IMG/VR virus record: IMGVR_UViG_2706795941_000001
Span: 1 to 64,000 of that record
Source: a virus
Lineage: Duplodnaviria; Caudoviricetes
Length of the DNA stretch: 64,000 nt
Strand: one strand, 5' to 3'
The notes below the pieces were generated by a model, which had not been told where the DNA came from, searched no databases, and saw only the letters and a list, made by a program, of their open reading frames with translations. A program made the translations under genes and the position numbers. Below, one piece after another: positions 7,181 through 10,672 of this stretch; the first letter of the stretch is position 1; every line of letters starts with the position of its first letter.

Positions 7181-7209
7181 AACATACACCATTGCAATAC
7201 GTTTGTCAA
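7181..7209 (-). promoter_or_regulatory. SigA-type promoter for the leftward replication operon
   Basis: TTGACA-17 nt-TATGTT on the minus strand. Confidence 0.75.
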
Positions 7210-7228: not shown

Positions 7229-7293
7229 TTTACCCCCTATACGCGCGCGCGTAGGATGCAATGCTGGCGCTTAGCCTAGGGTGCTGGTACTAT
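7229..7293 (+). promoter_or_regulatory. Rightward promoter(s) for the packaging operon
   Basis: TTTACC-17-TAGGAT (7229-7257). Extended -10 TGG-TACTAT (7285-7293), 8 nt before ATG 7302. Confidence 0.55.
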
Positions 7294-7301
7294 GCTGTCG
7301 T

Positions 7302-8699
7302 ATGCCAAAGATGCATCAGGGTCGTCGATTCGATTTGTACTTCGAAGACCCGATTACTTACTACCGCCAGATGATTGAAGCCGGCGAGAGCAATGTGCTG
7401 TTCGATTTCGGTACCATTCGCAAGAAGAAGATCAATCCCTGGATTTGGATGAAGCGCCACTTCCATGGGCTGCCTTGGAAGTGCTACGTCTCCGGGAACT
7501 GGTGCACAATTCAGATCGACTACACGTGCGAGATCAATGAGGTGCTTGGTGTATACCCGAGCTGGGACTATGCCAAGTTCAATACCAAAGAGCTGCGCGA
7601 CTACGTCGAGCGTCCGTGGTCTCAGTACGTGGTTGAAGGTCAGGGCGACTACGCCTCGAAGCCGAACCCAAACCAACCTCATCGTATCTTTGTTCGCGGC
7701 ATCTCCGCGGGCCGCAGTCGCGAGGACATCGCCAAGCGCAAGAAGATGACGGAGATACAGAGGGCCTGCCCGGAGGTAGAGTTCTTTATCATTCCGCGGG
7801 CGTACATGTTTGGCCTGATGTTCGGCGCCGGGTTCAGTGCGTGTTCGTTTTCGCCGGCTTTCTATTCTACACAGAACGCAGGGCGGGTGGTCTTGCCCAA
7901 CGGTTTCCCGGTTCCGTGGAGTGAGATCCCCGATTACCAGGACGCTTTCGATCATCTTGGATACGATGCTGAGTGGGTTCAGGAGGATCGGCAGAACGCG
8001 ATCCTGTTTATGATCGAATCCGCCCGCTATGCCGCACACCACTGGGACGATCCGACCGGACCCTTTCACAAGGGTCCACGCATTGCGGCAGACTACAGCA
8101 ACCCTGACATGTATGCCGAGGTCCCGTCGTATCAGAACCAGAAGCACTTCACCGCTGAGGCTAACTCGGAGACCGACAAGATTCTATGCAACGCTTGCTC
8201 GCTGTGGCGCAAGTGTCCTTCGTACCGTGATGGAGAGGTGTGCAACGTGACAAGCTCTGACACCAGCAAGCTGGTCAAGCTTGCTCAGTCTCGCAACGCA
8301 GACGACGTGGTCAACATGCTCTCGTCAGTCTTGGGCATGCAGGCCGGGCGACTAGAGAAGCGTATCGAGGCCGAGGAACAGGACACCGACGGCAAGCTCG
8401 ATCCGCAGGTTGACAAGTTGGCGAACTCGGTATTCAAGAACGGCACCACGCTCGCCAAGCTACTCAACCCCGCGCTGGCCCGACCGCTGGTTCAGGTCAA
8501 TGTCGGTGACAGCAACAAGGCCGTGTCCGCGGTGGCGCAAAGCGATCCTCGCGTCATGGCTGCGTACGTGATGAAGGAGATCGAGAAGGACGGCGTGGCG
8601 CGCGAGGACATCACCAAGGAGATGTTCGAGGCCAAGATGGAACAGCTCGTGGCTGCACAGCCGCAGGCCTCGGTGATTGAAGGGGAGATCGAGCAGTGA
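7302..8699 (+). CDS. Terminase small subunit-position protein: eroded TGT/DpdA-like barrel + Cys4 motif + helical TerS-like C-terminus
   Basis: Directly upstream of terL with GTGA overlap. CNAC..WRKC...C motif. Helical C-terminus. The N-terminal motif order resembles a TGT fold (inference). Confidence 0.55.
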   Translation: MPKMHQGRRFDLYFEDPITYYRQMIEAGESNVLFDFGTIRKKKINPWIWMKRHFHGLPWKCYVSGNWCTIQIDYTCEINEVLGVYPSWDYAKFNTKELRDYVERPWSQYVVEGQGDYASKPNPNQPHRIFVRGISAGRSREDIAKRKKMTEIQRACPEVEFFIIPRAYMFGLMFGAGFSACSFSPAFYSTQNAGRVVLPNGFPVPWSEIPDYQDAFDHLGYDAEWVQEDRQNAILFMIESARYAAHHWDDPTGPFHKGPRIAADYSNPDMYAEVPSYQNQKHFTAEANSETDKILCNACSLWRKCPSYRDGEVCNVTSSDTSKLVKLAQSRNADDVVNMLSSVLGMQAGRLEKRIEAEEQDTDGKLDPQVDKLANSVFKNGTTLAKLLNPALARPLVQVNVGDSNKAVSAVAQSDPRVMAAYVMKEIEKDGVAREDITKEMFEAKMEQLVAAQPQASVIEGEIEQ

Positions 8700-10672
8700 C
8701 CAGTGGCGCCTTTGAGGAGATGGAGTGGCTCTCCGAGAACCCCGCGTTCTGGATGCGCCCTGCGAATATCCGGGAGTTCGTCGGACCCGGATACCTCAAC
8801 GAGCGCAACGTGCGTCCCGGCATCATGCAGGCGCTCGTCGAGACGTTCGGCGAGAAGGTCAACCCGTACTCACTGAGCCCTAAGCGCAAGGCGGTGATCA
8901 CCGGCGCGATCGGCATTGGTAAGTCCACCTACGCCGCCATCGCGCTGTGCTACATGGTGCATTGGGTCAAGTGCCTGAAGAATCCCAAGGAGTTCTACAA
9001 CCTATCGGAGGACTCCATCATCGGCTTCATGATGATGAGTACCACCGAGAAGCTCGCACGTGAAGTCATCTTCCAAAAGGTCAAGCGACGTATCGAGAAG
9101 TCGCAGTGGTTCCAGGACCACACCGAGATCGAGAACCAGAAGCTCGAACGCCAGATGAGATTCGTCGGAGACATCTGGATCGTGCCTGGCTCCTCGGAGG
9201 AAACAAGCTTTGAGGGCTATGACATTCTCGGCGGGATCGTAGATGAGGGCGACTCGCACAAGGTAACCGAGCGCAAGAACTACGCAATGGCAGGTTTCAC
9301 CACGATCGAGTCTCGTATCAAGTCTCGATTCACTGACTTTAAAGCTAAGAACCACCGCGGCCTGATCATCTGCATCGGACAGTCCAAGTCCAAGTCCGGC
9401 TTCATGATGACCAAGTACCGGGAGTTCGAGAAGGACCCCGACGGCGTGGCACTGCGCCTTTCGCTGTGGGAGTCCTACGGCTGGTACAACTACACCAAAG
9501 ATCCCAACGACGTGGACCGCGGGATCGAAACAGCTGAGCGTGACAGCTTCTACTACGATATGCGCAAGCGGTTACTCCTCGAGAAGGAGACCGCGCTGCT
9601 CGTCATGAACAACAACCTCATCGAGGTGCCGAACACTTACCGCAGCGACTTCGAAGCCGATCCGGTGAAGGCCCTCCGCGACCTGGGCGGAATCCCGCCT
9701 GAGATAGAAGATCCGTTCATCTCGCAGGTGGACAAGATCTTGAAGGCACAGGAGAAGTGGCATGAGCGAGTCGGCGTACAAGAATCCCCGGCGGGTCACG
9801 GCAATAGCCTTGATAAGATTGAGCTGCCTGATTGGTTTCGGCCTATTGGCATTTCTTCTGATTTTCGCCGTGTCATTCATATTGACACAGCGTATTCTCC
9901 TTCTCCTGATGGTGACGCCCTCGGTCTTGCGATGGGCCACGTCCCGGAAAAGGTTATCCAGCACGGCGAAGAGCGACCCGTCATAGTCTTTGATCTACTT
10001 CTTCGACTGCAGGCTACCGCCTCGCAGGAGATCAACTTTGGCGAGGTTCGCGAGTTCATCTACATGCTTCGAGATGACTACGGCTTCGACATTGACATGG
10101 TGACCATCGACGGCTTCAACTCGATGGACTTCATTCAGCAGTTGCGTCGCAACAAGATCAAGTCTGACTATCTATCCGTAGACAAGAACAAGGCGCCGTA
10201 CGAAGACTTGCGCGACATCATCCACGAGGGTCGTGCGGAGTTCCCCTTCTACATGGTGCCGAACAAGCGCAGTGATACAGCGCTGACGAACATCGCATAC
10301 AAGGAGTTGTCCGAGGTTCGCGATGTGGGTCGAAAGATTGATCACCCAGTCGACGGGTCCAAGGATGTATCGGACTCGATGGCCGGCGTCTCGCACGTGT
10401 TGATCAGCAACAGCAAGTACATTCGCGAGGCTCGAACTGTTGAACCAGATGACAATGATCGACCGCGTGAGCGCGTGGTGGAGAACGTCGACGAGTTGTT
10501 CAGCGACTTCGATGTAGACAATGCGACTCTTGAGCAGGGCGCCACGTTCAAGCCGGTGTCGTTTGAAGACTTCAAGCGCAACGAGAATGGACTTCCATCT
10601 ATGGAGGATCTAGCTCGCATGATGAACGGCAACGGAACTCCAGGCTTTCCTGTGGGAGAGAAGCTACTCTAA
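8696..10672 (+). CDS. terL: Terminase large subunit
   Basis: Walker A GAIGIGKST, Walker B IVDEGD, nuclease motifs IHIDTA, TIDGFN and SKDVSD. Confidence 0.92.
   Translation: MTSGAFEEMEWLSENPAFWMRPANIREFVGPGYLNERNVRPGIMQALVETFGEKVNPYSLSPKRKAVITGAIGIGKSTYAAIALCYMVHWVKCLKNPKEFYNLSEDSIIGFMMMSTTEKLAREVIFQKVKRRIEKSQWFQDHTEIENQKLERQMRFVGDIWIVPGSSEETSFEGYDILGGIVDEGDSHKVTERKNYAMAGFTTIESRIKSRFTDFKAKNHRGLIICIGQSKSKSGFMMTKYREFEKDPDGVALRLSLWESYGWYNYTKDPNDVDRGIETAERDSFYYDMRKRLLLEKETALLVMNNNLIEVPNTYRSDFEADPVKALRDLGGIPPEIEDPFISQVDKILKAQEKWHERVGVQESPAGHGNSLDKIELPDWFRPIGISSDFRRVIHIDTAYSPSPDGDALGLAMGHVPEKVIQHGEERPVIVFDLLLRLQATASQEINFGEVREFIYMLRDDYGFDIDMVTIDGFNSMDFIQQLRRNKIKSDYLSVDKNKAPYEDLRDIIHEGRAEFPFYMVPNKRSDTALTNIAYKELSEVRDVGRKIDHPVDGSKDVSDSMAGVSHVLISNSKYIREARTVEPDDNDRPRERVVENVDELFSDFDVDNATLEQGATFKPVSFEDFKRNENGLPSMEDLARMMNGNGTPGFPVGEKLL

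Follow-up and report, generated by a model that had tools for sequence, protein, structure and literature searches.

A TGT/DpdA-like barrel protein encoded next to terL in Gordonia siphophages is a candidate small-terminase equivalent

The window analyzed here, positions 1 to 64,000 of the viral record IMGVR_UViG_2706795941_000001, belongs to the 74,073-bp genome of a Gordonia siphophage of the genus Demosthenesvirus, whose DNA is 89 to 93% identical to that of phages ASerpRocky, Hollow, Kvothe and Katyusha. The first gene of its rightward late operon (7302 to 8699, plus strand, 465 codons and a stop) occupies the small-terminase (TerS) position, directly upstream of terL. We judge the chances to be evenly balanced that its product is the packaging-initiation, i.e., small-terminase-equivalent, subunit of a large set of ~75-kb actinobacterial siphophages, built on a barrel derived from DpdA/tRNA-guanine transglycosylase (TGT) enzymes that does not carry out base exchange in the Gordonia clade. 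The TerS role as such is an inference, as are oligomerization and the contacts with Zn, DNA and TerL, and we propose the following division of labor. The barrel would read DNA at sites in, or at the edges of, a 1,182-bp terminal repeat; a four-cysteine (Cys4) knuckle would bind Zn and fix the barrel to the helical part; a long helical hairpin would oligomerize the protein; and the C-terminal module with its acidic tail would recruit TerL, made in stoichiometric coupling from an overlapping start codon.

Translation of the gene is free of stops, and its TGA stop codon (8697 to 8699) overlaps the GTG start codon of terL (8696) in a GTGA sequence (8696 to 8699), in keeping with the translational coupling that an initial annotation of the window had proposed for this 465-codon open reading frame (ORF). 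terL (8696 to 10672, plus strand) encodes 658 residues and is followed by portal, GDSL esterase/tail protein, protease and capsid genes, while a divergent AEP primase/helicase arm lies upstream of the TerS-slot gene. Using a 19-sequence alignment with canonical motifs, we recovered 45 related loci from IMG/VR, and all 45 show the order primase (minus strand), family gene, terL, portal. The same order was found in the isolated phages that were inspected and in short contigs obtained by exact look-up. Across the 45 loci, TerL proteins are 41 to 50% identical and the family proteins 20 to 32% identical.

The protein is 95 to 99.6% identical to its counterparts in Gordonia phages Kvothe, Katyusha and ASerpRocky, the highest value being that of ASerpRocky. 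A word-indexed search yielded 27 homologues with 40 to 95% identity, and an exhaustive profile search extended the family to 405 clusters (at 50% identity) with E ≤ 1e-3, 247 of them below 1e-30; nearly all members are full length, at 420 to 520 residues. By tblastn, the protein is present in 114 isolated Gordonia, Tsukamurella and Rhodococcus phages. Pfam and NCBIfam models matched neither the 465-aa protein nor 59 diverse relatives; C7_FIM2_N and GATA-type matches in the Pfam, NCBIfam and PDB sequence searches were set aside as noise from the Cys motif, and those searches gave nothing informative. PHROG 6902, labeled "terminase small subunit," matched the whole length of the protein (E 1e-242), and residues 291 to 456 also matched PHROG 16015, another family with that label.

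An AlphaFold2 model computed with a 28-sequence alignment shows residues 9 to 250 as a confident alpha/beta domain, with block values of the predicted local distance difference test (pLDDT) mostly between 80 and 94. This domain has the TGT-like (beta/alpha)8 barrel topology, and residues 1 to 255 (7302 to 8066; this and the other parts of the gene lie on the plus strand) are assigned to a TGT/DpdA-like TIM-type barrel. It is followed by a linker of residues 256 to 290 (8067 to 8171; pLDDT < 50, mean column majority frequency 0.26), and in the full-length model residues 260 to 316 are of low confidence and helices come after them. The strings from which the initial annotation had read the strand order of a TGT-like barrel are all present, namely LYF (12 to 14), VYPSWD (84 to 89), RIFVRGI (128 to 134), VEFFII (159 to 164), GFSACSFSP (177 to 185) and AGRVVLPNG (193 to 201).

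A Foldseek search of the PDB with the full model returned mixed TIM barrels only, all weak (E ≥ 8e-3). It was superseded by an exhaustive VIA-align search covering 48,161 PDB representatives, in which five members of the TGT superfamily ranked first and gave the longest alignments: bacterial TGT (3unt, score 10.3 over 213 positions), DpdA (7ui4, 9.8 over 214), Cap10 (9ntn, 9.7 over 206), QTRT2 (6fv5, 9.6 over 216) and archaeosine TGT (1iq8, 9.6 over 229). Among viral models (BFVD), the only annotated enzymes that Foldseek matched at E < 1e-3 outside the family itself were DpdA-like "queuine tRNA-ribosyltransferases," the rest being unnamed. The best matches came from Sulfolobales Beppu rod-shaped virus 1 (2e-4) and Microbacterium phage Megan (6e-4 and 2e-3), with weaker matches to queuine tRNA-ribosyltransferases of Arthrobacter, Mycobacterium and Dinoroseobacter phages. 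A shape search of the ESM Atlas placed three viral clusters in its top five rows, one of them named as a putative queuine tRNA-ribosyltransferase. A language-model search with residues 1 to 270 gave no usable match, and neither the Pfam TGT model (PF01702) nor the DpdA and TGT sequences of the PDB matched the protein, the 59 relatives or the genome.

We built a DpdA profile from 40 relatives of gp2 of Mycobacterium phage Rosebush, whose DNA carries dPreQ0 at 28% of its G (PMC6884629). This profile matches the DpdA of phage CAjan at 2.7e-22, and deletion of CAjan dpdA abolishes dPreQ0 (PMC6884629). An N-domain profile of 143 distant relatives matched the Rosebush-type profile with E 4.8e-4 and a score of 34.5 over 92 columns, compared with scores of 12.7 to 24.6 for 30 column shuffles of the DpdA alignment, which were run with an unchanged query but with match-state settings differing from those of the real comparison (-M 50 against -M first). 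The same N-domain profile matched the single CAjan DpdA sequence with E 4.5e-3 over 189 columns, three motifs being in register. Both alignments show one register, with the family H-x-H-G opposite FHGWG/LHAFG and F-x-A-x-D opposite SVDSS/SCDSS, and both also align the G-x-v-x-LPNG strand and the "lGf..dL..prnR" helix with DpdA; the CAjan alignment alone places the family W-D-R-G opposite L-D-S-G-A-F. Proteins of PHROG 16015 independently match the same DpdA segment. The TGT/DpdA-like N-terminal barrel of the initial annotation is thus supported by three structure searches and by profile-profile alignments in the same register.

In DpdA of Salmonella Montevideo, Asp95 (acid/base) and Asp256 (nucleophile) are essential, the base is read by Asp130 and His181, and a CXCX2CX22H Zn site pins insertion 8 (Ins8) (PMC10164549). 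When the Rosebush-type profile was run against the PDB, the hidden Markov model did not reach 7UI4, and the equivalence of the phage motifs to the S. Montevideo residues is proposed from motif order and the literature, not from a direct alignment.

The fate of the catalytic positions was followed in a MAFFT alignment of 172 family representatives, 144 distant relatives and the 28-member Gordonia clade. Position 162, opposite the DpdA His (LHAFG/FHGWG), is His in 97 of the distant relatives but Phe in 27 of the 28 clade members and in the 465-aa protein. At position 182, opposite the nucleophile Asp of SxDSS, Asp is kept in 118 distant relatives and missing in 26 of the 28 clade members (15 Cys, 9 Ser, 2 Asp), Ser being present in our protein. 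The profile alignments hence confirm the replacement of catalytic residues by Phe and Ser that had been read from the sequence. Position 164 is His in 97 of the 144 distant sequences and Lys, Arg or Ile in 22 of the 28 clade members (Ile here), and position 166 is Gly in 109 distant sequences. Asp at position 35 occurs in 86 distant relatives, in 11 members of the clade and in the 465-aa protein, where Asp-35 (F-D-F-G) lies opposite the Asp of L-D-S-G-A-F in CAjan DpdA, in a low-confidence part of the alignment. No conserved Asp could be placed in the CAjan alignment as the equivalent of the base-recognition (LDG) Asp.

A FastTree phylogeny of the 172 representatives, for which the trait columns had been removed, gave at least 15 state changes for Asp-182, at least 17 for His-162 and at least 36 for Asp-35. 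So many changes among orthologues that share a conserved slot speak against base exchange as the function being conserved. His-162 and Asp-182 co-occur strongly in the raw counts (Fisher, 1e-15), which hints at a once-functional site, but the association was not significant on phylogenetically independent pairs, which were too few; for that reason we did not use the co-loss of the two residues as evidence.

Genes for a 7-deazaguanine pathway were not detected. Pfam searches for TGT, QueC, QueD/PTPS and GTP cyclohydrolase I (FolE) found none in the whole genome, and QueC, QueD and FolE were likewise not found in nine relatives with canonical motifs and a completeness of at least 90%, QueE being outside both searches. 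Rosebush served as a positive control for QueC, QueD and FolE, which were detected in it each time. The lack of such synthesis genes noted for the window therefore extends, for these three enzymes, to the 74-kb genome and the nine relatives. In Rosebush (locus L005, 1 to 6041), a ParB-like gene, DpdA, QueC, QueD, QueE and FolE immediately precede terL, and no TerS is annotated; a true DpdA module can also occupy the terminase neighborhood of an actinophage. In Gordonia phage Hollow (locus L058, 47080 to 48928), a MazG-like pyrophosphohydrolase and a nucleoside deoxyribosyltransferase are annotated beside a DNA methyltransferase; PF05014 (nucleoside deoxyribosyltransferase) was not detected in the genome studied here at E ≤ 0.01.

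The C-terminal half is the better conserved part of the protein. The Cys motif read from the sequence is present as C296-x2-C299-x5-C305-x8-C314 within a knuckle of residues 291 to 320 (8172 to 8261; pLDDT 82 to 95 in the domain model), a presumed Zn site, and all four Cys are invariant in 172 of 172 family representatives. Residues 321 to 392 (8262 to 8477; pLDDT > 90) follow with a short helix and a long hairpin of two antiparallel helices (333 to 361 and 368 to 388); this part is a candidate oligomerization core. The protein ends in a three-helix module with an acidic tail (residues 406 to 465, 8517 to 8696), a candidate TerL-contacting end, in which alignments show a conserved ...GVxREDITxEM... 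sequence and an acidic C terminus. Folded alone with 144 sequences, residues 285 to 465 reached a pLDDT of 87, with a flexible loop between the hairpin and the three-helix module. Column majority frequencies were highest in the Cys4 knuckle (0.61) and the hairpin (0.53), compared with 0.42 in the barrel, so that the Cys4 motif and helical tail of the initial annotation proved to be real and the most conserved part of the family.

Structure searches with the C-terminal domain found only generic helical hairpins in the PDB and no match to TerS, to a Zn ribbon or to Ins8 of DpdA. The CXCX2CX22H pattern of the DpdA Zn site is not present; the Cys4 motif at 296 to 314 lies about 50 residues past the last barrel helix. 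Residues 291 to 373 nevertheless match positions 361 to 434 of phrog_887, a "queuine tRNA-ribosyltransferase" family (E 2e-6 in the genome search), which is the CAjan-type DpdA family, matched by CAjan DpdA at 2e-98 and by Rosebush DpdA at 2e-29. Given this match, the knuckle may be a derived form of the Zn region of DpdA.

Rather than a recent fusion, barrel, Cys4 motif and tail form a single obligate architecture, common to the family and PHROG 16015. Stand-alone C-terminal proteins were limited, at the available sensitivity, to one 147-aa fragment on a 797-bp contig. In Rhodococcus phage ReqiDocB7 (locus L057, 152 to 1548), the annotation divides the homologue between two "terminase small subunit" genes of 295 and 151 residues. 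We rejected this case as a natural domain split, since the Cys4 motif can be read in the frame overlapping the 3' end of the first of these genes; the split is best read as a frameshift inside the Cys4 region, either real or a sequencing error.

The genome ends bear on what the protein would recognize. By blastn of the ends, positions 1 to 1182 are 100% identical over 1,182 bp to positions 72,892 to 74,073; the left copy of this direct terminal repeat is non-coding and represents a candidate packaging substrate, and two complete relatives are also flagged as having terminal repeats. An exact repeat of this kind leads us to expect site-specific recognition of defined ends rather than a headful pac series, which would correct the pac recognition put forward in the initial annotation. 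CCCTAG occurs seven times in the terminal repeat and twice in the other 71.7 kb, and the repeat also contains two CCCCTAGGGG palindromes, near 847 to 870 and 1101 to 1110, as well as G7/C7 runs. The CCCTAG and CCCCTAGGGG sites are candidate binding sites for packaging or end recognition.

We next weighed the TerS role on its own. Models of Terminase_2, Terminase_4 and Sf6_terminase matched nothing in the genome, no TerS-like protein was found among the neighboring small genes, and the curated annotation of Hollow lists no other TerS over the first 50 kb of its record. Among named language-model clusters, the nearest to residues 285 to 465 was the small terminase of phage T5 (T5_Terminase_small, score 0.85), which we treat as a lead only. 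The position of the gene, its coupling to terL, the universality of both and the lack of another candidate make a TerS role somewhat better than an even bet.

Several observations count against this assignment. The distance to terL varies across the family from overlap to ~1.6 kb, with 0.3 to 1.6 kb, including two small ORFs in some contigs, separating the genes in certain relatives. No Pfam TerS family was found at E ≤ 5 for the 59 relatives, and there was no structural match to a TerS. PHROGs and RefSeq seem to have assigned the "terminase small subunit" label by position, and SEA-PHAGES annotators call the protein hypothetical. It has no basic segment, all segments being acidic to neutral, and the net charge of the barrel is -2, unlike the DNA face of DpdA, described as positively charged (PMC10164549). 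Finally, D73, C76, E160, R242, H246, H247 and D250 are invariant polar residues in the Gordonia clade (28 homologues); with A-A-H-H-W (244 to 248), T252 and G253, they form a set that is not conserved in distant relatives. They may constitute a clade-specific metal or ligand site and could even denote a new activity rather than none. The description of the protein as apparently dead applies to the Gordonia clade, with its own invariant polar residues; distant relatives mostly keep His and Asp.

These residues also feed the alternative that fares best, although we regard it as unlikely: that the protein is not a TerS but a DNA-modifying or -processing enzyme co-expressed with the terminase. Relatives with Asp-35, His-162 and Asp-182 would replace or remove a guanine of phage DNA with the help of water or of a base made by the host. 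An altered reaction would run through the invariant residues of the Gordonia clade, and the true TerS would be an unrecognized small protein elsewhere. The DpdA-matching His and Asp of most distant relatives, their raw co-occurrence and the Rosebush DpdA-preQ0 cluster next to terL speak for such an enzyme, as does the frequent occurrence in phages of orphan dpdA genes unaccompanied by preQ0 genes (PMC6884629; PMC9584339). Yet Asp-182 and Asp-35 change among orthologues in a manner unlike that of an essential nucleophile, the co-occurrence fades on independent pairs and the base-recognition Asp has no placeable equivalent. The nine near-complete relatives with canonical motifs have no detected QueC, QueD or FolE gene, and the DNA of Orion, an orphan DpdA phage, is without 7-deazaguanine (PMC6884629; PMC9584339).

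It is still less probable that the TIM-type barrel at the N terminus has a different or an independent origin, in which case the likeness to TGT and DpdA would be an effect of a common fold and the question of a dead enzyme would be moot. The top ranks and longest alignments of the five TGT-superfamily representatives in VIA-align argue against this explanation, as does the restriction of annotated BFVD matches to DpdA-like enzymes. Two independent DpdA references moreover agree in register and set three motifs on the family Asp, His and Asp, and PHROG 16015 and phrog_887 point the same way, through the barrel segment and the Cys4 region, respectively.

We consider it improbable that the gene serves another late function, such as head assembly, ejection or regulation of the late operon, and owes its position upstream of terL to operon history only. 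Such a role would fit the acidic overall charge of the protein and a size far above that of a typical TerS. Strict adjacency to terL across hosts and at 24 to 32% identity, translational coupling and the failure to find another TerS candidate speak against it. Equally improbable is the idea that relatives with the canonical triad are working DNA transglycosylase or glycosylase partners of the terminase, which would flip guanine and exchange or excise it at repeat-specific G-rich sites (e.g., CCCTAG clusters), thereby marking or nicking the ends for packaging, the Gordonia clade having kept base-flipping recognition and dropped the chemistry.

Returning to the packaging-subunit assignment, we compared the protein with known systems. 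By fold, its N-terminal domain behaves as a member of the TGT/DpdA superfamily, and we class it as a derived, probably non-catalytic offshoot rather than as DpdA because the nucleophile Asp, the His, the Zn motif, a match to the Pfam model and linkage to preQ0 genes were not found. It differs in several respects from the DpdA proteins of S. Montevideo (7UI4), CAjan and Rosebush. Phe and Ser replace the His and the nucleophile, and it has neither a Pfam TGT match nor a recognizable base-recognition Asp. The barrel is followed by a C-x2-C-x5-C-x8-C knuckle, whereas in DpdA a CXCX2CX22H site pins Ins8, and the helical part adds ~150 residues. No preQ0 genes were found, and the gene occupies a TerS position coupled to terL. 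Orphan DpdA proteins (of cluster B1 mycobacteriophages such as Orion and of other "group 3" phages) are likewise phage barrels without a preQ0 pathway (PMC6884629; PMC9584339), but they consist of the barrel only (250 to 320 residues), lie away from the terminase (the Orion match is at 15.9 to 16.5 kb) and have no Cys4 motif or helical tail. The nearest conceptual precedent is QTRT2 (PDB 6FV5), the non-catalytic subunit of eukaryotic TGT, an inactive paralogue kept as a partner. QTRT2, however, is eukaryotic, pairs with active QTRT1 and keeps the canonical Zn site, whereas the phage genome has no active paralogue and the partner would be TerL.

With classical TerS proteins (lambda Nu1, SPP1 G1P, Sf6 gp1, T4-like gp16 and T5 TerS), the protein shares a position upstream of and coupled to terL, a predicted long antiparallel hairpin that may be of the ring-forming kind and a C-terminal tail, besides the weak language-model likeness to T5 TerS. 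It is three to four times larger than these proteins and has no helix-turn-helix, its presumed DNA module being an enzyme-derived barrel with a Cys4 knuckle. The PHROG 16015 proteins (GordTnk2/Gmala1, Jumbo and PatrickStar), which occupy the same slot before terL, are homologous over residues 83 to 450 (hhalign E 2e-42), a stretch that takes in the second half of the barrel as well as the Cys4 knuckle and helical tail. Degeneration of the barrel has gone further in them, neither Asp nor His being present at the DpdA positions, and their N-terminal third is different. Full-text literature searches returned no paper in which a small terminase is connected with DpdA/TGT or with a TIM barrel, in line with the earlier impression that the architecture had not been described.

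The 5' end of the gene and its surroundings were also inspected. A longer frame would start at GTG 7281, but ATG 7302 is favored because the N terminus that it defines, MPKxHxGRRYDL, is conserved in 28 homologues. The sequence TGgTACTAT (7285 to 7293, plus strand), which ends 9 nt before this ATG, reads as a possible extended -10 element; a promoter consensus scan did not flag it, and it has no -35 element. No Shine-Dalgarno sequence is visible upstream of the ATG (7285 to 7304), and the late operon mRNA may be leaderless or nearly so. The primase arm has a TTGACA-17-TATGTT promoter pointing leftward at 7209 to 7181. At three related loci, the terL match spans 2.5 to 2.8 kb instead of ~1.7 to 1.9 kb (L046, 12101 to 14863; L053, 2467 to 5073; L055, 11458 to 13926), which suggests an insertion such as an intein or homing element.

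No part of the phage packaging motor is less conserved or less well understood than the small terminase, and to our knowledge no TerS at all has been recognized in many actinobacteriophages. If the assignment is correct, several hundred phage sequence clusters, including more than 100 isolated Gordonia, Tsukamurella and Rhodococcus phages, would recognize their genome ends through a recycled base-exchange enzyme module. This module would be a prokaryotic-virus counterpart of the QTRT2 pseudoenzyme and a novel type of reader for specific DNA sequences. The family provides an annotation rule for a gene now variously called "hypothetical" or "terminase small subunit," together with a warning against predicting 7-deazaguanine DNA from a DpdA-like phage fold alone. 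With relatives that have or lack the Asp and His residues in one slot, it would offer a natural series for the transition from an enzyme to a binding protein.

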